A stretch of DNA of 64,000 bases, taken from the sequence record PP129558. One strand, 5' to 3'. A program made the position numbers and the translations under genes. The notes beneath the pieces were generated by a model. That model saw only the letters and a program-made list of their open reading frames with translations, searched no databases and had not been told where the DNA came from. The stretch comes from Escherichia phage vB_EcoM_01. The number at the start of each line of letters is the position of its first letter. The stretch's first letter is position 1. Below, one piece after another: positions 15,007 to 64,000 of the stretch.

Positions 15007-18000
15007 TCAATGACAGGATGCCCAGGAATTACCCACGTCATATCCGGCAGTAAGCTGAACGTTAAGATTGTAAAATTCTCCAGCCTTAGTAACAGCTAAA
15101 GCAGCAAGCTCACCTGCCCGACTATAAGCTGTAAACCATCCACCTTTAGGAGATTCATGAATGTTAGCCCAAATTTGCCCTGTCTCTTTTTCCTTATTAT
15201 GCTTCCATTCTTCAACTTTAGCAAGGCATTCTTTATCAATTTTCTTTTGTTCTTCAGGATCGTCTACTTTCTTCCAACCTAATGATTCAGGTGAAAACCA
15301 TTTAAATTCTACAAGGTTACGAGAAACTTCAAGCTGGGCTTCATCGTGATATGCAATCATTTGTTGCACGAAGTCTTTATTCTTCCAGTCATCTTTAAAG
15401 AAGTCAACACTTAGCCCTTCTTCTTCTATCATGTCGTCATAAATAACCATTGCACGTTTAGCGCAGATAACCCCACCACTTTGGAACAGAGAGTTAAGAA
15501 TCGCGTGAGCAGAACGAGTAGGAACCTTACGACCGTCAATACCCAAAACATACTGTTTACCAGTCTTAACCCAGAAATCGTTTAAACGTTCTTTAAGACG
15601 TGCCAGTGGGAATGCAGCTTCCCAGAAAGCATCAAACACCAATTGACCTGTAAACTTATCGCTACCAATTGTTTTAGCAACCTTGTCGGCTTGTGCACCA
15701 TAGGTAATACCATACTTAACAGATTTAGCAGGACTACGTTCAAATTTACGTCCAATAGTTTCAGTGATACGTTTTGCCATCATTGTGTGAACATCGTTAG
15801 GTTTCTCTAACAACAGAGCGTTACAATATTCATGTGGCTCCGGCTCGTACCGCCAACAGTAGTGTGATTCAATTTTTGCTTCCAAAGAGTCGAAGTCGTA
15901 GCCGATCTGGAAGTATTTAGGCNNGTCTCTTATACACATCTGACGCTGCCGACGACAGACGTGGTGTGTAGATCTCGGTGGTCGCCGTATCATTAAAAAN
16001 NNNNNNNNNNNNNNNNNNNNNNNNNNNNNNNNNNNNNNNNNNNNNNNNNNNNNNNNNNNNNNNNNNNNNNNNNNNNNNNNNNNNNNNNNNNNNNNNNNNN
16101 NNNNNNNNNNNNNNNNNNNNNNNNNNNNNNNNNNNNNNNNNNNNNNNNNNNNNNNNNNNNNNNNNNNNNNNNNNNNNNNNNNNNNNNNNNNNNNNNNNNN
16201 NNNNNNNNNNNNNNNNNNNNNNNNNNNNNNNNNNNNNNNNNNNNNNNNNNNNNNNNNNNNNNNNNNNNNNNNNNNNNNNNNNNNNNNNNNNNNNNNNNNN
16301 NNNNNNNNNNNNNNNNNNNNNNNNNNNNNNNNNNNNNNNNNNNNNNNNNNNNNNNNNNNNNNNNNNNNNNNNNNNNNNNNNNNNNNNNNNNNNNNNNNNN
16401 NNNNNNNNNNNNNNNNNNNNNNNNNNNNNNNNNNNNNNNNNNNNNNNNNNNNNNNNNNNNNNNNNNNNNNNNNNNNNNNNNNNNNNNNNNNNNNNNNNNN
16501 NNNNNNNNNNNATCATTGTGTGAACATCGTTAGGTTTCTCTAACAACAGAGCGTTACAATATTCATGTGGCTCCGGCTCGTACCGCCAACAGTAGTGTGA
16601 TTCAATTTTTGCTTCCAAAGAGTCGAAGTCGTAGCCGATCTGGAAGTATTTAGGAACCTCTACACCAAACAAGTTACGCATCTCCCATCCAAACAAAGAT
16701 GTGACACGAGGAATGTTAGCTACAGACCTATGCTTCATACGAGAGGTTGCAGCATCACATGTAGCTGCTGGGGTAGGAATACGACCATCCGCCCTTACTG
16801 CGGCTAAGAAACCTTTATCGTATTCTTGATCTTCTTCATCTTCTTCCCAATCAGCACCGCCACCTAAAATAGAGTTCCTACGATGCTTATACGTTAAGTA
16901 TTCTACAATCTGTGTAGCATAAGGGAATTTCTCACCCAAAGCTTGCAGGTTAGGACAGATTTCTTTTTCCTGACCTTTGGTAAAACATGGGTTAGTCAAT
17001 ACTTTAAGACCGCGACCTTTACCTTTTGCTATACGCTCTTGAATCTTCCTTTCCAAGGTTTCCGGTGTGCACTCCAGATGATCACAACGGTCCTGACAAA
17101 AATTAGAAGATAAAGTTTGCTCAACGTAAGCTCGAATACCTTTCTGAAGTTCTTCCTCGCTCTTTTTAATCTTGGTGCCAGATTTAAGAGTCAAGTCTTT
17201 ATCTTTATATTCAGACGGTACCCAACCTAATCCTACAAGCCAGTTTTTAATATGGGTTGTATCGTTCAATGTTGCAGGGATGTGAGGATCACATAAAGGC
17301 TCATCTGCTGCAACTGGCAGTTTCCACTCTTTCCCCAACATAACTAACCACCAATCTCCATCCCTCTCTTCCAAATGACCATCATGTTTCTTAGCAAAAT
17401 TGATCATATGGTTAGTTGGCTCTAAGTTCTTTTTAATTTGCAACTTAGGTGGAATAAAAGCCTTAAGATAGCCTTTTGTTGCTGGTTTAGGTGGCAAAAT
17501 AGGCTCAACGAGTAAACGAAGACGCTCCATTTCTGCATCCAAAAAAGCAAGGTTCTCTTCTGCTTGCTTCATGTTAAAAGCAAATCCACGGTGTTCCTGG
17601 CGTGTAATAATGTCTGCTACACGTTGTTCAAGTTCAAATGGACCTTCCCATTTATCATAATCACCCCACTCTTCCATAAGGTAATTATATACGCTTGTAT
17701 TAGCTTTGTTGTCATAGATACAGTAATAAAGCATATCCGCAGCAAAAGTCTTAAATCGATCTTCTTCTGGAATCTCTTTACGGAAATCTATTTTTACATC
17801 ACCACCTGCTTTTCGAGAAAGTGCTGCCAAGCTATGTCCTGATTTGCCCTCAATCTTTCGATCTGGGTTTAACACTTTACTCAAAATCAAGGAGTCAATA
17901 AGTTTTACCTTATTTTTGCCCCACGTATTATATTTAACACTGTAATCTAATCCATAAAACAGTTTTGTAGCCAACCAGTCGTAGTTGATACCGTTGTGAG

Positions 18001-48899: not shown

Positions 48900-49252
48900 A
48901 AATTGTACACGATGAAATTCAAATAGAAGAAAGTGACCTGATGGATTTGGATGCAGCTTTGGGGAAGGTAATCTATGCAGGAATTAAAGCCTTCCGTGAG
49001 AAGGCAAACAATAGCACGTTTGTCATGATCCCCACTAAACTGATGCGTGTTTTGTATCCAAATAGAAGTGCGCCGTATACAAATGAAGAAGAGGAGACAG
49101 GTAGAAGAGAGTGGTTAAATATTTTAGAAAAGATGGAGAATGCTTTTATTGATAGTGGTAATCCAGAAATCGTGTATGCTGAAGATCAAAGGAAGGCACG
49201 GTTAGAGGGCCGTCTTTTATTCGCTAGTTATTTTGATAATCTTTGGAGCTAA
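48896..49252 (+). CDS. hypothetical protein
   Basis: 118 aa ORF, overlapping stop/start. Confidence 0.5.
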   Translation: MKIVHDEIQIEESDLMDLDAALGKVIYAGIKAFREKANNSTFVMIPTKLMRVLYPNRSAPYTNEEEETGRREWLNILEKMENAFIDSGNPEIVYAEDQRKARLEGRLLFASYFDNLWS

Positions 49253-49431
49253 ATATGTCTGAATTCTTCACAATGGCTTTCTTAGGGATCTATCTGATTA
49301 TTAGTGCTGTTGGCTTAATCATGTCTCTAATAGAGGAAATGGGAATTAAGTGGAATTGTGCATTCGGTATAGCTCTTATGCTCACTCCGGTTTGGATCTA
49401 CATCTGCAAAGCAGTTGAACTAATTGGTTAA
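49243..49431 (+). CDS. small membrane protein
   Basis: 62 aa, two hydrophobic helices. Confidence 0.45.
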   Translation: MELNMSEFFTMAFLGIYLIISAVGLIMSLIEEMGIKWNCAFGIALMLTPVWIYICKAVELIG

Positions 49432-50220: not shown

Positions 50221-50385
50221 ATGATTTTAAACTTCATCATCAACTTGTGTTTGACATTGGGACTACTCTGTGCAATAGTATCCCCTCTGATTGGTGAATA
50301 TTTTTCTGAACTGGCGATGTTTATAGTTCTTGGTGCGGCTGTTGCTAATATGTTTGTCGCTGCGATTTGTATGTTGTGGGAATAG
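50221..50385 (+). CDS. small membrane protein
   Basis: 54 aa ORF not in track; AAGGAGAGAAT RBS; two hydrophobic helices. Confidence 0.4.
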   Translation: MILNFIINLCLTLGLLCAIVSPLIGEYFSELAMFIVLGAAVANMFVAAICMLWE

Positions 50386-51973: not shown

Positions 51974-53146
51974 ATGGCGAAGACGTTAGAACAGTATATA
52001 GGAGAATGTAAACCAATAGCGGAAGCTAAAGGATATGAGATTATAGGGATTGTAGAGCCATTTAAAGNAGGTGTGCACACGAAGATGATCAACTTCTGCC
52101 CTAATCNNNNNNNNNNNNNNNNNNNNNNNNNNNNNNNNNNNNNNNNNNNNNNNNNNNNNNNNNNNNNNNNNNNNNNNNNNNNNNNNNNNNNNNNNNNNNN
52201 NNNNNNNNNNNNNNNNNNNNNNNNNNNNNNNNNNNNNNNNNNNNNNNNNNNNNNNNNNNNNNNNNNNNNNNNNNNNNNNNNNNNNNNNNNNNNNNNNNNN
52301 NNNNNNNNNNNNNNNNNNNNNNNNNNNNNNNNNNNNNNNNNNNNNNNNNNNNNNNNNNNNNNNNNNNNNNNNNNNNNNNNNNNNNNNNNNNNNNNNNNNN
52401 NNNNNNNNNNNNNNNNNNNNNNNNNNNNNNNNNNNNNNNNNNNNNNNNNNNNNNNNNNNNNNNNNNNNNNNNNNNNNNNNNNNNNNNNNNNNNNNNNNNN
52501 NNCTGCCTGCTCTCACGATGAGTATGTGCAAGCTGGGGTGTGTGATGGTAAGTTTTATGTCGCAGGGAATGACCTTAAACAAGGGAAGATTCCTTGCCGT
52601 TGTGCAACTAACTGTCATTACACAGAAGCACAGATTACCTATAGGGTAAAAAAGGCAGTAGAAAGGAAAGGGTATATCTGGGTAGGTTGGATCGGGAAAC
52701 CGTCTGTAAGATTAGGTAAGTTTAAATATGGATGTAAGAAACATGGGGTACAAATAGGACGTGCCAGTGGTTTGTTAAATCATGGTACTGGTTGTCCGCA
52801 ATGTGCTAACCAGACACAACAACAATGTTACATTAACCACATCCATGATGAACAAGGTATTCTCTGTGCTTTGAAATTTGGAATTGCCAATAATAGTGAT
52901 CGCCGTATCAAAAAACAAAATAGTCATAATGTGTTTACTATGAAACAGGTCCAAGTGTGGCACTTCCCTACTGTGAAGCAATGCAAAGATGCAGAGAAGC
53001 GTTGTAAGCGTGTCCTTCACACGGAAGCAGTGAGCAAATATGCTATGCCAGATGGCTACACAGAGACAGTGGAGTTATCTTGCATGGCATCAATACAAAA
53101 CATTTATAAACTTTATGGTGGAACATTACAGGAGGAAACATGTTAG
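51974..53146 (+). CDS. Cys-rich protein (zinc-ribbon motifs), interrupted by gap
   Basis: C-terminal 214 aa after gap has CRCATNC and CPQC; N-terminal 44 aa before gap; internal sequence unknown (52107-52502 N). Confidence 0.4.
   Translation: MAKTLEQYIGECKPIAEAKGYEIIGIVEPFKXGVHTKMINFCPNXXXXXXXXXXXXXXXXXXXXXXXXXXXXXXXXXXXXXXXXXXXXXXXXXXXXXXXXXXXXXXXXXXXXXXXXXXXXXXXXXXXXXXXXXXXXXXXXXXXXXXXXXXXXXXXXXXXXXXXXXXXXXXXXXXXXXACSHDEYVQAGVCDGKFYVAGNDLKQGKIPCRCATNCHYTEAQITYRVKKAVERKGYIWVGWIGKPSVRLGKFKYGCKKHGVQIGRASGLLNHGTGCPQCANQTQQQCYINHIHDEQGILCALKFGIANNSDRRIKKQNSHNVFTMKQVQVWHFPTVKQCKDAEKRCKRVLHTEAVSKYAMPDGYTETVELSCMASIQNIYKLYGGTLQEETC
52107..52502. other. scaffold gap (N-run)
   Basis: 396 n. Confidence 0.95.
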
Positions 53147-54666: not shown

Positions 54667-54705
54667 ATGCAGATGGGAATGAGAAGAGTTCTCATATGGA
54701 AATGC

Positions 54706-54784
54706 AAATGATAATGATTCGCATTTAGGTTTATAAATGAGATTGATTCTTATTTGATAAGGTAAATGATAATCATTCTCATTT
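54706..54784. promoter_or_regulatory. two Fur-box-like motifs
   Basis: aaaTGATAATGATTCGCATTt (54706-54726) and aaaTGATAATCATTCTCATTt (54764-54784); resemble Fur box GATAATGATAATCATTATC. Confidence 0.4.
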
Positions 54785-55010
54785 AGAGAATGACGCGCAG
54801 GGGCGGTGTTTGTCTCGCGCTCCCGTGTCCCCTCGCCATGTAATAAGAATAACAGATCCAGCCAGGAAAGCAAGCGATTATTTTATCTTTACATTTCTTT
54901 ACAAATATATAGCGCCCAGCCTACCGGCGATCAACCTTCCAACCAGCGCCCTGGTATGTTAGCCCCGCCTTTACGCCGTGGGGTGGCGCTTCCTCTCCTG
55001 TATGTAAAAC

Positions 55011-55699: not shown

Positions 55700-55758
55700 T
55701 TGACAACAAACAACAACCTGATAAGATGTATCACATAGGGCGGGAAGTGGTTTCCCGC
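55700..55758 (+). promoter_or_regulatory. promoter plus 5' hairpin module
   Basis: TTGACA-16-TG-a-TAAGAT-gtatcacatag-GGCGGGAA gtggt TTCCCGC. Confidence 0.6.
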
Positions 55759-55783
55759 TCGTAACAGAAGAGAGATTATCATC

Positions 55784-56056
55784 ATGGCATCATATAGCGC
55801 AACAATGATCGTAGCTGGCACCACTGGTAAACCTATGTGCGGTGGCGGATCTTTCGCTAATATCAATATTGACGGGCGTTTATCCCTGGACGCAGCGATC
55901 ACCGTGGCGCGGGAAACATTTAAGAAAGAATGTAAATTCAATAAACAAGATTATCTCGGTTTCGCTATTGAAAAAACCGCGCGCTTTGTTGATTATAAAA
56001 GCCCGAAAATGGTTGATACTACACTAAAAGCGCAAGATGTAGCGTTTTTGCTTTAA
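55784..56056 (+). CDS. hypothetical small protein (array gene)
   Basis: 90 aa; AGAGAGATTATC RBS; preceded by module. Confidence 0.6.
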   Translation: MASYSATMIVAGTTGKPMCGGGSFANINIDGRLSLDAAITVARETFKKECKFNKQDYLGFAIEKTARFVDYKSPKMVDTTLKAQDVAFLL

Positions 56057-56059
56057 GGC

Positions 56060-56114
56060 TTGACATTAACGAATAATTTGTTTATATGTTACATAAAGCG
56101 GGAATAGTTCCCGC
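56060..56114 (+). promoter_or_regulatory. promoter plus 5' hairpin module
   Basis: TTGACA-17-TATATG...GCGGGAA tag TTCCCGC. Confidence 0.55.
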
Positions 56115-56132
56115 TATTTGTAAGGTGGTAGA

Positions 56133-56390
56133 ATGTTTTACATCAAATTAAAAGGTCACGTGATCGCGTTCAAAGATAACGCTTTTTACAGATTAGCAAA
56201 ATATGCGTTAATACATCCCCACTATGTTTATATAAGGGGGCGTGATGAAATAAATATCTTTGATCAAACAACATGCGAGAACATCGAGATCCGCAAGGTT
56301 GGCGTACGTGATTATCGTACATCTTTCTACCCTTGCAAGGATTCAGCAAGTCTTTTTAAAGTATGCCGATTGTTGAAAAAAGGTGGTTAA
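56133..56390 (+). CDS. hypothetical small protein (array gene)
   Basis: 85 aa; AAGGTGG RBS. Confidence 0.55.
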   Translation: MFYIKLKGHVIAFKDNAFYRLAKYALIHPHYVYIRGRDEINIFDQTTCENIEIRKVGVRDYRTSFYPCKDSASLFKVCRLLKKGG

Positions 56391-56949
56391 TATGGGCCGC
56401 GAATATGTGATCCAGTCTTGGGTAAAACATGAAGCAGATGATCCGCGCATCATTCCTGATTATCTTGTCGATGAATCCACGGGCTATAGCGGGGAGCAAA
56501 TAGGTAACAGATCAGCACGTAGTAACGGCAACGTAAAAGCGCGTTATGTGCGCCCTGGCTGGCTGGCAAATGGTAACGCTGATTTATCCAGTGCGGAAGA
56601 TGCGAGCGACGGCGCGAAAGATAATCCTTTGTACAAAATTGATCCGGCTTTTCGTGTCCTGGATGAATACCCCAGCAAGATAGCGGCGCTCGATCAAGCC
56701 CTGGAAAGTAAGCGCATCACCTGGACCGCTTACAACATGGCAAAAAACGTACTTGATGGTAAATTGATTCAAGCTGAAAGAAAATTAGCCAAAATTGCAG
56801 CCATAGCCCAGGAGGAAGACGAGGAGACAACGGAAGAGGAAGAGTACGAAGAGATCCCGCCGTTGTTGTGTGTTGATGCTTTTCCTGATTATCAGCCGAC
56901 AGAGGAAGAAAAAAGGATCGCGCTAGAAAACTTTGAAAATAGTCTTTGA
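56383..56949 (+). CDS. hypothetical protein with highly acidic C-terminal region
   Basis: 188 aa; EEDEETTEEEEYEE tract. Confidence 0.55.
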   Translation: MVNMGREYVIQSWVKHEADDPRIIPDYLVDESTGYSGEQIGNRSARSNGNVKARYVRPGWLANGNADLSSAEDASDGAKDNPLYKIDPAFRVLDEYPSKIAALDQALESKRITWTAYNMAKNVLDGKLIQAERKLAKIAAIAQEEDEETTEEEEYEEIPPLLCVDAFPDYQPTEEEKRIALENFENSL

Positions 56950-57003
56950 CATATCGCCGCCACTGGCATAATATTTACCACGTAGGGCGGCAATGGTGCC
57001 GCT
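56946..57003 (+). promoter_or_regulatory. promoter plus 5' hairpin module
   Basis: TTGACA (overlapping upstream stop)-17-TAATAT-ttaccacgtag-GGCGGCA atgg TGCCGCC. Confidence 0.55.
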
Positions 57004-57031
57004 CATAGTGAAATTATGCAAGAGGTTTACA

Positions 57032-57127
57032 ATGATTAATAAAGAAAATAGCTTGACGGTTGGAACGATTAACGCTATCATTTTCGCCGTTCCATTTTGG
57101 GTTGTAGTAGCGGCTATTATTTTCTAA
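57032..57127 (+). CDS. small hydrophobic peptide (31 aa)
   Basis: AAGAGG RBS 7 nt upstream; MINKENSLTVGTINAIIFAVPFWVVVAAIIF; not in track. Confidence 0.45.
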   Translation: MINKENSLTVGTINAIIFAVPFWVVVAAIIF

Positions 57128-57136
57128 AAAATATTC

Positions 57137-57196
57137 TTGACAACGTTTTTTAATCTGATAAGATGTATCACATAGGGCGGCGGAATACTTCCCCGC
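57137..57196 (+). promoter_or_regulatory. promoter plus 5' hairpin module
   Basis: TTGACA-16-TG-a-TAAGAT-gtatcacatag-GGCGGCGGAA tac TTCCCCGCC. Confidence 0.6.
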
Positions 57197-57218
57197 CAAA
57201 ACAAAAAAGGGTAACACA

Positions 57219-57581
57219 ATGAGCAAGCAAATCAATACTATCATGTTTAATCTGGTATCTTTCCGCGATGATATGAAAAATTTACCACGTGAAACGGTTG
57301 ATATTCATGTTTCAGCTTATCGCGCCCTTATTGATATGTTACCGCTAAAACGTGATCAACATGCCGCTAATATGATGCTTAATGCTATGCTTAAAAAGAT
57401 GATTCAAACGGATCTTACTCTGGCGTATGAGTATCAAGGGCGCTTATATGCGACTTACAACAAGGCGGTACCTGGTCTAGGAAGTACCGAAGAGTTGCAC
57501 GGCTTAAACCTGGATCAAAACACTTGGGATAGTATGCGCCGCGTTATGGTATGGGCCGAAAGCGGTAAAATTTACGAATAA
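57219..57581 (+). CDS. hypothetical protein (array gene)
   Basis: 120 aa; AAAAGGG RBS. Confidence 0.6.
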   Translation: MSKQINTIMFNLVSFRDDMKNLPRETVDIHVSAYRALIDMLPLKRDQHAANMMLNAMLKKMIQTDLTLAYEYQGRLYATYNKAVPGLGSTEELHGLNLDQNTWDSMRRVMVWAESGKIYE

Positions 57582-57587
57582 AAACGG

Positions 57588-57647
57588 TTGACACTGTTTA
57601 AAATTCTAGTATAGTTTACCACATAGGGCGGGAAGTGGTTTCCCGCC
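57588..57647 (+). promoter_or_regulatory. promoter plus 5' hairpin module
   Basis: TTGACA-16-TATAGT-ttaccacatag-GGCGGGAA gtggt TTCCCGCC. Confidence 0.6.
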
Positions 57648-57669
57648 AACAATGAAAAAGGTTAACATC

Positions 57670-58035
57670 ATGGCTANNANTNNNAANNNTNNTGNTTATG
57701 CTACCCTGGCTAACACTGCTAAAATTGAACTATCCAGCATTGAAGCGGTACATATTAGCGCCCGTCGCTGGTTTCAAAAGTCTTATGGTAATACTTATTT
57801 CTCTTTGATGGTTGACGTTGAGATCGGCGGTAAACTGATCGAAGTGGTTAACGTTCCGTTTCAATATGGCTATGGGGATCATTTTGATACCGTTGCCCTA
57901 GAAGAGTTTAGCAAGGTTATCAACCTGGAAGGTAAAGAATTTTCAAATTATGCCTACCTTTCCCGTTTTTGCCGTGATAATGGGATCGCTGTATACAGTC
58001 ATGCAAGCGATGTTAAACGTAAAAAAGATTTATAA
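57670..58035 (+). CDS. hypothetical protein (array gene); contains ambiguous bases
   Basis: Start placed at ATG 57670 with AAAAAGG RBS (track begins 57652 inside hairpin); n bases at 57677-57694. Confidence 0.5.
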   Translation: MAXXXXXXXYATLANTAKIELSSIEAVHISARRWFQKSYGNTYFSLMVDVEIGGKLIEVVNVPFQYGYGDHFDTVALEEFSKVINLEGKEFSNYAYLSRFCRDNGIAVYSHASDVKRKKDL

Positions 58036-58041
58036 AAAGCA

Positions 58042-58100
58042 TTGACAGCACGAATAAAAAGAGTAAACTGTATTACATAGAGAGCGGGAATAGTTCTCGC
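58042..58100 (+). promoter_or_regulatory. promoter plus 5' hairpin module
   Basis: TTGACA-16-TAAACT-gtattacatagag-GCGGGAA tag TTCTCGC (G-U wobble). Confidence 0.55.
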
Positions 58101-58124
58101 CTCACTGAAAAAGAGAGAAAAATC

Positions 58125-58364
58125 ATGGCTAAATCTAAAATGTACAACGGTCACAAAAACAAAACTCATTGGAATGTAAGCCTGTGGATTAATAACGATG
58201 AGGGATTGTATCGGTTTGCATTGGGATTGATCAATGAGTGCGGTAATAAAGATCAGGCGGCTGATTTAATGTGCTACCGTTTGAAACAGGATGGAATCAC
58301 TACAACGCCAGACGGCTTTAAGTATAGTAAAACTGCAATCCGCGCCGCTATGGTTGGAATGTAA
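58125..58364 (+). CDS. hypothetical small protein (array gene)
   Basis: 79 aa; AGAGAGAAAAATC RBS. Confidence 0.55.
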   Translation: MAKSKMYNGHKNKTHWNVSLWINNDEGLYRFALGLINECGNKDQAADLMCYRLKQDGITTTPDGFKYSKTAIRAAMVGM

Positions 58365-58373
58365 TAAAAACAG

Positions 58374-58432
58374 TTGACAACGTTTAAAATTAGTGTAAGA
58401 TGTATCACATAGGGCGGGAAGTGGTTTCCCGC
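58374..58432 (+). promoter_or_regulatory. promoter plus 5' hairpin module
   Basis: TTGACA-16-TAAGAT-gtatcacatag-GGCGGGAA gtggt TTCCCGCC. Confidence 0.6.
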
Positions 58433-58455
58433 CAACAACAGAGAGATTAAAGATT

Positions 58456-58683
58456 ATGGCTATCAATATTGTTCGTGTATCCGGCACCGTTGGCAGTTCC
58501 CAGGTTGTAGCAGTTGTAACAAACAAAAAGATTAATGATGTATGTGAGATCTTGAATAAGTGGGCTATTGCTAATTTTGGGGAATATGCAAGCGTTGAGT
58601 ACATCGAATCCTACCAGGTGCCGACCATCAGCCTAACCGATCTCAACGTTGATCGCCTGTTATGCCTGGATGAATTAATCTGA
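58456..58683 (+). CDS. hypothetical small protein (array gene)
   Basis: 75 aa; AGAGAGATTAAAG RBS. Confidence 0.55.
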   Translation: MAINIVRVSGTVGSSQVVAVVTNKKINDVCEILNKWAIANFGEYASVEYIESYQVPTISLTDLNVDRLLCLDELI

Positions 58684-58692
58684 AAAAGATTG

Positions 58693-58748
58693 TTGACACG
58701 GGAAAGAAAAAGAGTAAACTGTATTACGTAGGGCGGCAATAGTGCCGC
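58693..58748 (+). promoter_or_regulatory. promoter plus 5' hairpin module
   Basis: TTGACA-16-TAAACT-gtattacgtag-GGCGGCA atag TGCCGC. Confidence 0.55.
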
Positions 58749-58773
58749 TCACAACAGAAGAGAGATTATCACG

Positions 58774-58910
58774 ATGGCTAATATCCGTACACTGTTAAAA
58801 AATGCAAGTCAAGTTTTATTTTCAGATGACGAGTATTTCAACAAAGACATTACAGGCGTGAAAAATTTAAAANGNCNTNNANNANTNTAACGGCGACGAT
58901 GAAGAGTAAT
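58774..58910 (+). CDS. hypothetical small protein (array gene), ambiguous bases near 3' end
   Basis: AGAGAGATTATC RBS; ORF about 45 aa; n bases 58874-58890 make the end uncertain. Confidence 0.35.
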
Positions 58911-58975
58911 TAATAAGGCGGGGAATACTTCCCGCCACGCAGTGAATTTTCCGTTTGGGAAGTAAAAAATAAATC

Positions 58976-59037
58976 TTGACGATAATTTGTTATCTGATAG
59001 AATGTATTTCGTAGGGCGGGGCAATAAGGCAACGCCC
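58976..59037 (+). promoter_or_regulatory. promoter plus 5' hairpin module (variant)
   Basis: TTGACG-16-TG-a-TAGAAT-gtatttcgtag-GGCG...CGCCC. Confidence 0.5.
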
Positions 59038-59055
59038 ATTAATGAGGGTAGAATC

Positions 59056-59163
59056 ATGTTAGAGAAAATTTTCACGGTTGTAATAGTGGGCCTGGCGTTA
59101 TTGGTTGGAGTGGTTGCAACTATGGCTAACATGATCCTATCTTCCCACGGTATCGGCTAAAAG
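59056..59163 (+). CDS. small hydrophobic peptide (35 aa)
   Basis: GAGGGTAGAATC RBS; MLEKIFTVVIVGLALLVGVVATMANMILSSHGIG; not in track. Confidence 0.45.
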
Positions 59164-59248
59164 AGAGACACAACATGAAAACAGAAATCATTATTGAAAT
59201 CATCAACGGCTATAAAGAAGCCTTTATTTTTGCTGAATCACACATCTG

Positions 59249-59303
59249 NNNNNNNNNNNNNNNNNNNNNNNNNNNNNNNNNNNNNNNNNNNNNNNNNNNN
59301 NNN
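59249..59303. other. scaffold gap (N-run) with duplicated flanks
   Basis: 59094-59240 is repeated at 59304-59450. Confidence 0.9.
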
Positions 59304-59384
59304 GGCGTTATTGGTTGGAGTGGTTGCAACTATGGCTAACATGATCCTATCTTCCCACGGTATCGGCTAAAAGAGAGACACAAC

Positions 59385-59771
59385 ATGAAAACAGAAATCA
59401 TTATTGAAATCATCAACGGCTATAAAGAAGCCTTTATTTTTGCTGAATCAGCAAGGGATCATGAAGGTAATTTTATCGATAACTTAGACGATTATGATTT
59501 TTCTCCTAGCGCGGACGAACGGATCGCCCAGGATGTAACAGCCTTTATTAATGCTAATCTTGCCGCTATCTCTGAGGCAATGAGCGACGGCGCAACAGCC
59601 AACCAGATCGGGAATGATTTACATTTTACCCGTAACGGTCACGGCGTAGGATTTTGGGATCGCCCTGAAATATACACCACTAACACGGCGAACCGCCTAA
59701 CAAATGCAGCTAAGTTTATGCCGAACGTGTCGGCTTACATTGGTGAAGATAATTTGATTTATATTGAATAA
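59385..59771 (+). CDS. hypothetical protein (array gene)
   Basis: 128 aa; AAGAGAGACACAAC RBS; truncated duplicate of 5' end at 59175-59240. Confidence 0.55.
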   Translation: MKTEIIIEIINGYKEAFIFAESARDHEGNFIDNLDDYDFSPSADERIAQDVTAFINANLAAISEAMSDGATANQIGNDLHFTRNGHGVGFWDRPEIYTTNTANRLTNAAKFMPNVSAYIGEDNLIYIE

Positions 59772-59777
59772 AAAGTA

Positions 59778-59889
59778 TTGACACAGATCGCCAGTGTGCT
59801 AATATTTACCACGTAGGGCGGCAATGGNNNNNNNGANACNGATCGCCAGTGTGCTAATATTTACCACGTAGGGCGGCAATGGTGCCGCC
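59778..59889 (+). promoter_or_regulatory. promoter plus 5' hairpin module (duplicated by assembly artifact)
   Basis: TTGACA-16-TAATAT-ttaccacgtag-GGCGGCA atgg TGCCGCC; repeated after n block 59828-59840. Confidence 0.55.
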
Positions 59890-59907
59890 GATAATGAGGA
59901 AAGTAAA

Positions 59908-60207
59908 ATGGAAACTATCGCTATTGTTACCGTAGAAAAACTGGTTGTTGGTGATGTATTCGCGTTAATGGTGCCTAACAGCAGCAAGCTGGGCGCTTAT
60001 GAAGTAATGGATCATAAAAATGAATCATTTGGCGACGGTTGCACAATGGCGGTAAAATCTTTAAGGGATGGAATCATCCGCCAGGCTAACTGGCACAAAG
60101 GGAATCAAGTCGGTTTAATATCAGCTAATTTCTTGCCAGAAGAGCAAACATTAGATCAACTGTCAGGCGGTAAGACGTTAGCCGAACTACTGGAAACAGC
60201 GATCTAA
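59908..60207 (+). CDS. hypothetical protein (array gene)
   Basis: 99 aa; GAGGAAAG RBS. Confidence 0.55.
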   Translation: METIAIVTVEKLVVGDVFALMVPNSSKLGAYEVMDHKNESFGDGCTMAVKSLRDGIIRQANWHKGNQVGLISANFLPEEQTLDQLSGGKTLAELLETAI

Positions 60208-60212
60208 TCGAC

Positions 60213-60228
60213 AAGGGGCGGCAACGCC
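60213..60228 (+). other. intergenic RNA stem-loop with GNRA-type loop
   Basis: GGGGCG-GCAA-CGCCCC, no T tract; repeated at 60493-60508 by assembly duplication. Confidence 0.4.
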
Positions 60229-60298
60229 CCCATTAAACGCAATAGGAAGAGGATAGACACATGAAAAAGATGATCGCAGTAGTTGCCCTGGTTGTTGG

Positions 60299-60429
60299 NN
60301 NNNNNNNNNNNNNNNNNNNNNNNNNNNNNNNNNNNNNNNNNNNNNNNNNNNNNNNNNNNNNNNNNNNNNNNNNNNNNNNNNNNNNNNNNNNNNNNNNNNN
60401 NNNNNNNNNNNNNNNNNNNNNNNNNNNNN
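60299..60429. other. scaffold gap (N-run) with duplicated flanks
   Basis: about 150 bp before the gap is repeated after it (60430 onward). Confidence 0.9.
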
Positions 60430-60541
60430 CATTAGATCAACTGTCAGGCGGTAAGACGTTAGCCGAACTACTGGAAACAGCGATCTAATCGACAAGGGGC
60501 GGCAACGCCCCCATTAAACGCAATAGGAAGAGGATAGACAC

Positions 60542-60832
60542 ATGAAAAAGATGATCGCAGTAGTTGCCCTGGTTGTTGGTATTAACGCGCCTGTACTGGC
60601 TAATGAGTTGCCAGAATCCATCACGCTAACCGATATCAACGCAGTGAACCGGATCGGTGTTAATTATCGCCTATGCCTTGCCGCTAAAACTTTCCAGGAC
60701 GGCACGACAGAATACCACGGATTCGAGGGTATACGCTGCGGTGAGCTTGCACGCGACCTTAAGGAAGATCCAGACCTTGAGGCCATACCGATGACCGTAA
60801 ACGGTAAAGCTTACGTAAACCGCCAACAATGA
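60542..60832 (+). CDS. secreted small protein
   Basis: 96 aa; signal peptide MKKMIAVVALVVGINAPVLA; GGAAGAGGA RBS. Confidence 0.55.
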   Translation: MKKMIAVVALVVGINAPVLANELPESITLTDINAVNRIGVNYRLCLAAKTFQDGTTEYHGFEGIRCGELARDLKEDPDLEAIPMTVNGKAYVNRQQ

Positions 60833-60963
60833 GAAAGGTAATCATCACAATGGGGATCGTAGTAGCAACGCTGGCGCTTATTCCCTTCCTGGTTGAATAT
60901 GTGCTGATTAATGTTGTCCTGGTAGTCAGTGACATATTGGAAACGGTTGGCACCTGGTTTTAA
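60829..60963 (+). CDS. small membrane peptide (44 aa)
   Basis: ATGA stop/start overlap with upstream gene; MRKVIITMGIVVATLALIPFLVEYVLINVVLVVSDILETVGTWF; not in track. Confidence 0.45.
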   Translation: MRKVIITMGIVVATLALIPFLVEYVLINVVLVVSDILETVGTWF

Positions 60964-60972
60964 AAATAAATA

Positions 60973-61002
60973 AACAGGACTTGTTTTTGTCCTGTTTTTT
61001 GT
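60973..61002 (+). terminator. rho-independent terminator at end of array
   Basis: aacaggac-ttgttttt-gtcctgtt hairpin followed by TTTTTTGTT. Confidence 0.7.
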
Positions 61003-61139
61003 TATACTTATTGAACGGGCGGCACCTGGGAGCAGGCGAAGATAATCACCGGAAGATCCCGCTATATATCGATAGCTAATACCTATCAAACAACAAAACA
61101 TCAAAGAGATAAACTATCAAATCTTTACAATCCTACCTA

Positions 61140-61216: not shown

Positions 61217-62456
61217 ATGAAAGAAGTTATGATCCTCAAAAAATCACCTATTTTACGTGGTGGCTTTATCGCTTACTCTGATGATCTGTTAATTGCAACA
61301 GTTGCAAAAATACTAAAATCAGAAGATGACAGTAAANNNNNNNNNNNNNNNNNNNNNNNNNNNNNNNNNNNNNNNNNNNNNNNNNNNNNNNNNNNNNNNN
61401 NNNNNNNNNNNNNNNNNNNNNNNNNNNNNNNNNNNNNNNNNNNNNNNNNNNNNNNNNNNNNNNNNNNNNNNNNNNNNNNNNNNNNNNNNNNNNNNNNNNN
61501 NNNNNNNNNNNNNNNNNNNNNNNNNNNNNNNNNNNNNNNNNNNNNNNNNNNNNNNNNNNNNNNNNNNNNNNNNNNNNNNNNNNNNNNNNNNNNNNNNNNN
61601 NNNNNNNNNNNNNNNNNNNNNNNNNNNNNNNNNNNNNNNNNNNNNNNNNNNNNNNNNNNNNNNNNNNNNNNNNNNNNNNNNNNNNNNNNNNNNNNNNNNN
61701 NNNNNNNNNNNNNNNNNNNNNNNNNNNNNNNNNNNNNNNNNNNNNNNNNNNNNNNNNNNNNNNNNNNNNNNNNNNNNNNNNNNNNNNNNNNNNNNNNNNN
61801 NNNNNNNNNNNNNNNNNNNNNNNNNNNNNNNNNNNNNNNNNNNNNNNNNNNNNNNNNNNNNNNNNNNNNNNNNNNNNNNNNNNNNNNNNNNNNNNNNNNN
61901 NNNNNNNNNNNNNNNNNNNNNNNNNNNNNNNNNNNNNNNNNNNNNNNNNNNNNNNNNNNNNNNNNNNNNNNNNNNNNNNNNNNNNNNNNNNNNNNNNNNN
62001 NNNNNNNNNNNNNNNNNNNNNNNNNNNNNNNNNNNNNNNNNNNNNNNNNNNNNNNNNNNNNNNNNNNNNNNNNNNNNNNNNNNNNNNNNNNNNNNNNNNN
62101 NNNNNNNNNNNNNNNNNNNNNNNNNNNNNNNNNNNNNNNNNNNNNNNNNNNNNNNNNNNNNNNNNNNNNNNNNNNNNNNNNNNNNNNNNNNNNNNNNNNN
62201 NNNNNNNNNNNNNNNNNNNNNNNNNNNNNNNNNNNNNNNNNNNNNNNNNNNNNNNNNNNNNNNNNNNNNNNNNNNNNNNNNNNGGAAAATTGAATATCGC
62301 GAGATGATCGACGATGAAACGGGGCAGGATTTTAGCGAGTACGTTTATATTCGTTCCGAGACATTAGCCGAACGTTTGATCGAGAAAATGAAAGCAAAAA
62401 ATAAAATTAATTTATCTCATTGGATTGATATAACAAACGATCCAGCTTATCAGTAA
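61217..62456 (+). CDS. coding region interrupted by large gap (one or more genes)
   Basis: N-terminal 40 aa with RBS before gap; C-terminal 57 aa after gap ending at 62456 followed by terminator; 61337-62283 is N. Confidence 0.35.
61337..62283. other. scaffold gap (N-run)
   Basis: 947 n. Confidence 0.95.
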
Positions 62457-62559: not shown

Positions 62560-63000
62560 TCGCGGTATCGAGCTAATCAACCATTAAACGAATAACCATA
62601 CCTCCCAGGGCAACAGGCTGTTAGAGAGCCATTTATAGCGGTTAAAATCGATCAACAACCAACAACAAACCATCAAAAACACCCTTTTACCTCCTTTCTA
62701 GTGCAATGATAACCATTATCATCTACCCATGATTATCTATGCAATATAAGCGCATAACTATAATGTTGATAATAGTTCGCAACAACTAACTAACCAACAA
62801 CCTAAAACAACAAGCAAACTAATCATAATCAAAGGAATAATAGCAAGATGATTGATAACGACAAACAATAAAACCATGATGAATACTAAGCAAGATAACG
62901 ATAACACGACAAAACAACCAACTAACGAACAATAACAAACGAAACCATTAAAATAATAACTATTAGCAAAATAGTGCCTGAATGAAATCATTACAAAACG
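62560..63000. repeat. strand-asymmetric A+C-rich low-complexity non-coding tract
   Basis: Plus strand dominated by caacaa/aacaa/ataac units, depleted in G and T; no credible ORF. Confidence 0.6.
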
Positions 63001-63240: not shown

Positions 63241-63448
63241 AAGGAAATAATTAGCAAGATGAATAATTGCACGTAGCAACATGAGCGAATAGCGACAGNN
63301 NNCATAGTGTNNAAACATACAGGAAAATAAAGGCTAATCTTTTGGGGCGAATACTATCGCGTAGCGATATGTTGAGCAAGTTCTCTTAAACGTAAATAAA
63401 ATCAGAAAATTCTTGATTTGTTTTGGTTTTTATGTTAATAAACGTTTA

Positions 63449-63647
63449 AATAATAATCATTCTCATATAAATAATAGTCGGCTTGTCATGAGCGGGATTA
63501 GTTGACAATGTTCCGTCATATGATGAAGTTGCCAAGCCATTGATAAATAAGTGTTTGTGTGATTTATAATCAGGTGGCCCACCTTGTCGCTATGTTGGCA
63601 TGAGCCTTGCATAAGTCATTGAATACGAATGATAATTATTCTCATTC
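63449..63647. promoter_or_regulatory. two further Fur-box-like motifs
   Basis: aATAATAATCATTCTCATa (63449-63469) and aATGATAATTATTCTCATT (63627-63647); same core as 54706-54784. Confidence 0.35.
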
Positions 63648-63714
63648 GCATGATATTTGGGAATTGTCGCTGCGTGGACCTGACGGCCCGAAAATTCGCG
63701 TTAAGCACTTCTTA

Positions 63715-64000
<286 letters not shown>

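Follow-up and report, generated by a model that had tools for sequence, protein, structure and literature searches.

Three short open reading frames (ORFs) on the plus strand of a 64,000-nucleotide (nt) stretch of Escherichia phage vB_EcoM_01 (PP129558; hereafter the window), ORF1 at 57032-57127 (31 amino acids, aa), ORF2 at 59056-59160 (34 aa) and ORF3 at 60829-60963 (44 aa), are very probably translated and code for single-pass membrane peptides, as judged by comparison with related phages. We consider it likely that they are genuine microgenes of the genus Phapecoctavirus, whose products are single-pass inner-membrane peptides that are accessory and act on the host envelope. A preliminary description of this DNA had given the coordinates and lengths of ORF1 and ORF3 correctly but had ended ORF2 at 59163 with 35 aa; its TAA stop codon occupies 59158-59160 and the peptide has 34 residues. 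The same description had called the three ORFs unannotated, which is true only of the annotation track with its 60-aa cutoff. ORF1-3 are already known: identical proteins have been deposited as hypothetical or membrane proteins, and homologues in phage rV5 have been called membrane proteins with one transmembrane domain (TMD). All three lie in an array of cassettes, each composed of a host-type sigma-70 promoter, a 5' GC hairpin, a ribosome-binding site (RBS) and one or more genes. The proposal that each ORF has a good RBS or stop/start coupling stood up, with AAGAGG in front of ORF1, GAGGG in front of ORF2 and an ATGA overlap at ORF3.

A single transmembrane (TM) helix was predicted for each peptide, as had been claimed. 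The best 19-residue Kyte-Doolittle window scored 2.57 in ORF1, 2.72 in ORF2 and 2.69 in ORF3. The six frames of the window contain 491 ORFs of 25-59 aa, of which only 2.4%, 0.8% and 1.2%, respectively, reach these values. The best windows scored 2.2-3.0 in every homologue (minimum 2.19), and the summed Hessa scale was negative for all three (ORF1 -0.18, ORF2 -2.39, ORF3 -1.48). Since 17% of the same 491 small ORFs exceed the usual hydropathy cut-off of 1.6, hydrophobicity alone is weak evidence. The case for genes rests on position, translation signals and conservation, and not on the TM-like stretch itself.

Conservation was examined in 22 loci, comprising 15 GenBank relatives retrieved by accession, 2 other relatives and 5 IMG/VR loci, the last being the yield of scans that used the flanking 96-aa and 120-aa proteins. 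The preliminary description had named conservation in related genomes, next to translation, as a check on its proposal, and conservation was found: the ORFs are open across relatives, and ORF2 and ORF3 also occur in rV5-like Vequintavirus. For the proposed frame, pooled Nei-Gojobori estimates on the homologous DNA gave ratios of nonsynonymous to synonymous change (dN/dS) of 0.28 for ORF1, 0.26 for ORF2 and 0.36 for ORF3, the smallest among the six frames and a sign of purifying selection, with synonymous differences of up to about 0.6 against rV5, UPEC06 and Klebsiella phages. Of the remaining five frames, four are interrupted by stops in most or all sequences. Variable alignment columns fell at codon positions 1, 2 and 3 in numbers of 58, 32 and 78 (chi-square p = 7e-5), as would result from selection for hydrophobicity that keeps T at position 2 but lets V, I, L, M and F replace one another freely. 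In addition, an N-terminal Lys/Arg is present in every homologue of ORF1-3, across two phage subfamilies.

ORF1 starts with ATG and encodes MINKENSLTVGTINAIIFAVPFWVVVAAIIF. Its sigma-70-type promoter at 56946-56974 on the plus strand (TTGACA, 17 nt, TAATAT; 10/12 consensus matches; repeat family D1/D5) is followed at 56985-57004 by the 5' hairpin of the predicted mRNA, a GC-rich repeated element of the array (GGGCGGCA/UGCCGCUC; D5). This hairpin has an 8-bp stem in both the minimum free energy and the centroid structures, and the RBS is unpaired in the centroid. The Shine-Dalgarno site AAGAGG (57020-57025) lies 6 nt 5' of the ATG and is kept in tuntematon, ASO2A, ESCO13 and nepoznato. ORF1 is monocistronic, being the only gene between the promoters at 56946 and 57137. 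A longer annotated version of 44 aa from 56993 was rejected, as it would start within the loop of the 5' hairpin and without an RBS. Homologues gave tblastn matches in 113 phage records (Phapecoctavirus, Justusliebigvirus and related Klebsiella phages). They are 31-47 aa long with a variable C-terminus and occur in three unrelated upstream contexts, sharing the core (K/N)KENSLTVGTINAI..VP.W; conservation covers the N-terminal half of the helix plus Pro21 and Trp23. No PHROGs family matched ORF1. Its exact sequence has been deposited from four Phapecoctavirus phages (QHR71900.1, QHR75980.1, QPI12822.1 and QPX72017.1, one UniRef entry), and it is also annotated as ASO2A_267 and tuntematon gp044.

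ORF2 (MLEKIFTVVIVGLALLVGVVATMANMILSSHGIG) is the first gene of a two-gene cassette. The sigma-70-type promoter of this cassette at 58976-59003 (plus strand; TTGACG, 16 nt, TAGAAT, with a TG extension), found by the consensus scan, precedes a 5' hairpin at 59014-59037 (-16.8 kcal/mol, z = -3.6) and the Shine-Dalgarno site GAGGG at 59044-59048, which is 7 nt 5' of the ATG and is kept in nearly all homologues. An annotated 57-aa version from 58987 was rejected, as it would start inside the promoter or hairpin and lack an RBS. Matches by tblastn were obtained in 156 records, including Vequintavirus (rV5, FV3, APECc02), and the length was exactly 34 codons in all 17 homologous sequences. Conservation lies in the C-terminal half of the helix (ATMANMILSSHGIG, with a polar Asn within the predicted membrane span), and the C-terminal motif reads ATM(A/S)NMILS(S/F)(H/N)GIG. 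The second gene of the cassette, co-transcribed 3' of ORF2, encodes a 128-aa protein (59385-59771, plus strand; phrog_1915); its true start, 59175 in the first copy, follows the ORF2 stop by 14 nt, and phi92 has the same adjacency. The gene at this place varies: most phages have a 71-aa gene, the window and phi92 share the 128-aa gene, and UPEC06 has yet another. The ORF2 stop is always 10-14 nt 5' of the next ATG. ORF2 matches phrog_14631 over its full length (E 6.8e-21; residues 1-34 on profile 1-34 of 34), and a full HMMER scan of 1.84 billion representatives with ORF2 matched only two of them. The exact sequence is deposited for vB_EcoM_01 as WVW37652.1, and ESCO13 carries it as a 63-aa annotation with a different start.

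ORF3 (MRKVIITMGIVVATLALIPFLVEYVLINVVLVVSDILETVGTWF) is predicted to form one long helix and is the last gene of a unit that runs from a sigma-70-type promoter at 59778-59805 (plus strand, consensus scan) through a 99-aa gene, a hairpin, a 96-aa gene and ORF3 to an intrinsic terminator at 60972-61003 (plus strand; 9-bp stem and T run; -15.4 kcal/mol, z = -4.4), the single good one in the consensus scan, which placed it at 60972-60997. At the 59778 promoter, part of the segment 59789-59842 is repeated on either side of a short N run (family D5). The start of ORF3 overlaps the stop of the 96-aa gene as ATGA (60829-60832), and the coupling to the 94/96-aa gene is kept in 12 of 12 homologues, either as this overlap or as a TAA 2 nt before the ATG. 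The length was exactly 44 codons in all 12 homologous sequences, among which Pro19, a charged residue at position 23 and VVSD at 32-35 are conserved. AlphaFold2, run with the alignment of homologues, modelled one uninterrupted helix over residues 2-43 with a predicted local distance difference test (pLDDT) score of 93. Homologues matched in 161 records by tblastn, again including Vequintavirus (rV5, FV3, APECc02). ORF3 corresponds to phrog_16005 over its full length (E 9.9e-28; residues 1-44 on profile 1-44 of 44), and clustering of its family at 90% identity gave 29 clusters, whose sources are without exception these phages or metagenome contigs. The exact sequence has been deposited for vB_EcoM_01 as WVW37656.1, and the ESCO13 annotation has 37 aa from a different start.

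The 96-aa gene (60542-60832, plus strand; phrog_9845) encodes the predicted periplasmic partner of ORF3. It has a Sec-type signal peptide (MKKMIAVVALVVGINAPVLA, followed by NE) and two conserved cysteines that are nearly invariant among homologues; the mature protein, of about 76 residues, is therefore expected to lie in the periplasm and to contain a disulfide bond. The AlphaFold2 model (mean pLDDT 78.7) has a disordered signal peptide, three strands, a helix and a short fourth strand, and the confident core had no significant structural neighbour in PDB or BFVD.

Among the closest known relatives are two proteins of rV5. Its gp170 (ABI79235.1, 44 aa) resembles ORF3 in 59% identity, equal length and position after a 94-aa signal-peptide gene, and its gp173 (ABI79238.1) resembles ORF2 in 56% identity, the shared C-terminal motif and its place as first gene before a 71-aa gene. 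On similarity and neighbourhood together, we regard ORF3 and ORF2 as orthologues of gp170 and gp173. The two phages differ in that rV5 belongs to Vequintavirinae, that residue 23 of gp170 is Arg whereas it is Glu in ORF3 of the window, that the last 8 C-terminal residues of gp170 are unlike those of ORF3, and that gp173 is annotated as 46 aa with a start 12 codons further upstream than that of ORF2. Kropinski et al. (2013; PMC3606486, Table S3), using TMHMM and Phobius, had entered both rV5 proteins as "membrane protein, 1 TMD".

The three peptides also resemble AcrZ, MgrB, CydX, KdpF, MgtS and YohP (reviewed in PMC12648545) in having fewer than 50 aa, one TM helix and no catalytic domain. They are unlike these bacterial small membrane proteins, which bind to larger complexes in the membrane, in being phage-encoded and in lacking homology to them (best NCBIfam hit YkgR, E 2.7); Pfam and NCBIfam, including the models of E. 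coli small membrane proteins, gave no family for ORF1, ORF2 or ORF3. A mode of action can be proposed. Because sigma-70-type promoters imply unmodified host RNA polymerase, ORF1-3 would be transcribed by this enzyme, probably early. The peptides are too short for co-translational targeting and would therefore be inserted post-translationally, as reported for the 27-aa YohP of E. coli (PMC7549839). The N-terminus would stay in the cytoplasm and the C-terminus would face the periplasm because of the conserved N-terminal Lys/Arg and, for ORF3, also the acidic C-terminal half. The peptides probably have no enzymatic activity and would act by packing their helices within the membrane against an envelope protein of host or phage, a model that the motif conservation patterns of ORF1, ORF2 and ORF3 fit. 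The most likely role would be an accessory one in remodelling the host envelope during takeover, for which superinfection exclusion and inhibition of a host membrane complex are possible forms.

For ORF3, a two-part module with the periplasmic 96-aa protein may be envisaged. In the virulent myovirus T4, superinfection exclusion involves Imm, a small protein of the inner membrane, and Sp (spackle), a periplasmic protein made from a signal-peptide precursor of about 97 aa. ORF3 and the 96-aa protein would be analogous to Imm and Sp in their membrane-plus-periplasm layout; Pfam gave no match that would indicate homology, and the 96-aa partner had no significant neighbour in PDB. More speculatively, ORF3 and the 96-aa protein might constitute a new envelope module of anchor and periplasmic effector in rV5-like and phAPEC8-like phages, ORF1 and ORF2 might be stand-alone intramembrane inhibitors of specific host inner-membrane proteins, and at least one of the three might confer superinfection exclusion or block a membrane-bound defence or transport system. 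Taken as a whole, this extended scheme is doubtful.

Several observations weigh against the reading of ORF1-3 as accessory envelope-active microgenes, or against parts of it. The proposed early timing would follow from promoter type only, and sigma-70 promoters were noted throughout the rV5 genome (PMC3606486). With a partner that has no informative structural neighbour, synteny alone would back the two-part module. The families are narrow and absent from about one third to one half of related records, and the genes are therefore dispensable and accessory. The literature on the transcriptomics and function of the small genes of these phages yielded no study of the ORF1-3 proteins. Finally, in every homologue of each ORF, the antisense frame shifted by one base is likewise free of stops, with dN/dS of 0.40-0.45, and frame openness alone fails to pick the strand. 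Position 2 of the sense codons is mostly T, hence the antisense codons begin with A and form no stops, and the wobble positions of the sense and the open antisense frames coincide. We read the open antisense frame as a by-product of hydrophobic coding, and by this argument the minus-strand ORFs that it yields in the window (57014-57244, 58809-59132 and 60811-61104) were rejected. The plus strand was chosen because of the promoters, RBSs, start codons, terminator and lower dN/dS.

Other explanations were weighed against the same data. If the ORFs were chance frames in the non-coding leaders or spacers of the cassettes, with hydrophobic translations arising from T-rich sequence, one would understand why 17% of the 491 small ORFs pass the hydropathy cut-off, why about half of the related GenBank records have no annotation here and why ORF1 has no PHROG or Pfam family. 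This is very unlikely, because frame and length have been held at synonymous divergence of up to 0.6, dN/dS is 0.26-0.36 with a codon-position bias of p = 7e-5, RBSs and start codons are conserved, and ORF1 persists behind three unrelated upstream sequences; without ORF1, moreover, a full promoter-hairpin-RBS cassette would express nothing. It is likewise very unlikely that only the act of translation matters, with ORF2 setting the expression of the downstream gene, ORF3 ending the operon and the peptides themselves functionless. The invariable 10-14 nt between the end of ORF2 and the next ATG and the constant overlap or abutment of ORF3 with the 94/96-aa gene would suit such regulatory ORFs, but the amino-acid sequence is under selection, the ATMxNMILSxxGIG motif of ORF2 is kept before three different downstream genes, ORF3 is last before a terminator with nothing downstream to regulate, and ORF1 is monocistronic.

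The other alternatives accept membrane peptides and assign them different tasks. Collapse of the proton-motive force by toxic pore-forming or depolarising peptides, similar to the type I toxins Hok, TisB, Ibs and Ldr, could shut down the host or block DNA entry. Peptides of 31-44 aa that form one very hydrophobic helix and have strong promoters agree with it, and the membrane depolarisation reported upon YohP production in E. coli (10.1101/2025.05.06.652344) also counts in its favour. Nevertheless, such toxicity is very unlikely, as a lytic phage depends on an energised host through most of its cycle, and the conserved residues form specific motifs instead of a generally amphipathic pattern, a sign of a specific partner. 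No toxin or small-protein family was matched either: Pfam (E<=1) and NCBIfam (E<=5) gave nothing beyond noise for the type I toxin profiles Hok/Gef, TisB, Ibs, Ldr and ShoB. A minus-strand match to 10/12 positions of the promoter consensus at 57143-57116 lies just 3' of ORF1 and points into it. Otherwise, the promoter scan gave no convincing minus-strand promoter at ORF1-3 and an Rfam search of 54-64 kb gave no match, no search having been aimed at antisense antitoxins. A part in lysis timing, as holin, antiholin or pinholin-like modulators, had been raised in the preliminary description and is disfavoured as very unlikely. Small size and one TM helix speak for it, the latter being found also in class III holins and some antiholins. 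Holins, however, typically carry a basic, highly charged hydrophilic C-terminal tail, which none of ORF1-3 has: ORF1 ends inside the helix, ORF2 ends with the uncharged SSHGIG, and the tail of ORF3 is acidic in the genus of the window (net -3) and about neutral in rV5. The three genes lie in sigma-70 cassettes of small genes with no endolysin alongside, the endolysin of this phage itself not having been located, and in rV5 the genes of the lysin gp89 and the putative holin gp129 are both far from those of the homologues gp170 and gp173 (PMC3606486).

How these genes have been annotated varies among relatives. Homologues are annotated in ESCO13, ASO2A, tuntematon, nepoznato, the BASEL phages Bas59 and Bas60, and rV5, and the locus tags of WVW37652.1 and WVW37656.1 (00263 and 00267) fit the gene order of the window. 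The deposited proteins, phrog_14631 and phrog_16005 are all labelled hypothetical or of unknown function. Evenly spaced samples of the match lists showed a coding sequence (CDS) annotated over the ORF1 match in 22 of 37 annotated records, over the ORF2 match in 13 of 36 and over full-length ORF3 matches in 12 of 31, and about half of the related GenBank records omit these microgenes. At least once, in AV123, the antisense strand was chosen by the gene caller; such errors are a predictable artefact because hydrophobic coding keeps one antisense frame open. In that record (OR352953.1), an annotated minus-strand CDS at 539-730 of the locus analysed overlies the ORF1 homologue, and it is probably an antisense mis-call from the stop-free frame. 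As a genome feature, ORF1-3 are of small value: the genes are real, but their exact products had been deposited before and their orthologues were flagged as 1-TMD proteins in 2013. They do form a defined, conserved set of membrane micro-proteins in therapeutic-type coliphages of the rV5, phi92 and phAPEC8 groups, and are cheap targets for expression and deletion screens.

The region around the three genes, at 56.9-61.1 kb, shares 94-97% nucleotide identity with Phapecoctavirus genomes (AV126, TSP7_1, ASO2A, ESCO13 and others), by which the source phage is assigned to Phapecoctavirus (Stephanstirmvirinae), as a phAPEC8/ESCO13-like E. coli myovirus. Matches to this region were found in 232 phage records. 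Since short cassettes make it up as a mosaic, none of these records matches more than about half of its length without a break. The repeat unit of the array is about 60-100 nt (families D1, D2, D5 and D6) and consists of TTGACA, a -10 box, a GC-rich hairpin (..TAGGGCGG..loop..CCGCC..) and an RBS, followed by a small gene. The consensus scan placed sigma-70-type promoters on the plus strand at 55700, 56946, 57137, 57588, 58042, 58374, 58693, 58976 and 59778. The GC hairpins of the 55700-59900 array, including those at 56985-57004, 59014-59037, 59872-59889 and 60496-60511, lie 3' of the promoter and 5' of the RBS and have no T run. The ASO2A record labels the equivalent hairpins as rho-independent terminators; their position suggests 5'-terminal mRNA hairpins instead. 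The spacing between ORF1 and ORF2 is 2.0 kb here and about 5.7 kb in AV126 and ESCO13, and such differences in array length among relatives are consistent with gain and loss of cassettes between repeats.

The window is a draft scaffold with 47 runs of N and 2193 N in total. The runs include 1-35, 16000-16511, 52107-52502, 59249-59303, 60299-60429, 61337-62283 and 63717-63767, together with many short ones such as 57688-57697, 58874-58887 and 59829-59841. Two gaps are flanked by exact duplicates of 147-150 nt (59094-59240 equals 59304-59450, and 60149-60298 equals 60430-60579), and these duplicated gap edges therefore create artefactual partial second copies of ORF2, the start of the 128-aa gene, the end of the 99-aa gene and the start of the 96-aa gene. 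The partial second copy of ORF2 at 59304-59370 on the plus strand is such an assembly artefact (family D4, 100% identity around the N run 59249-59303).

Outside the cassettes, repeat family D7 occurs at 54705-54791 (three tandem 29-nt copies), 62703-62731, 63447-63475 and 63626-63654, in AT-rich, apparently non-coding DNA on both sides of the array and beside repeats D9, D10 and D12. Its core, AATGATAATCATTCTCATT, resembles the E. coli Fur box, and 54762-54780 matches GATAATGATAATCATTATC with 3 mismatches, where 0.03 matches are expected by chance. Two more small hydrophobic ORFs were observed on the plus strand, at 50221-50385 (54 aa, with AAGGAGAG just upstream) and 49243-49431 (62 aa). Each has room for two TM segments, and they may be extra small membrane protein genes outside the array.

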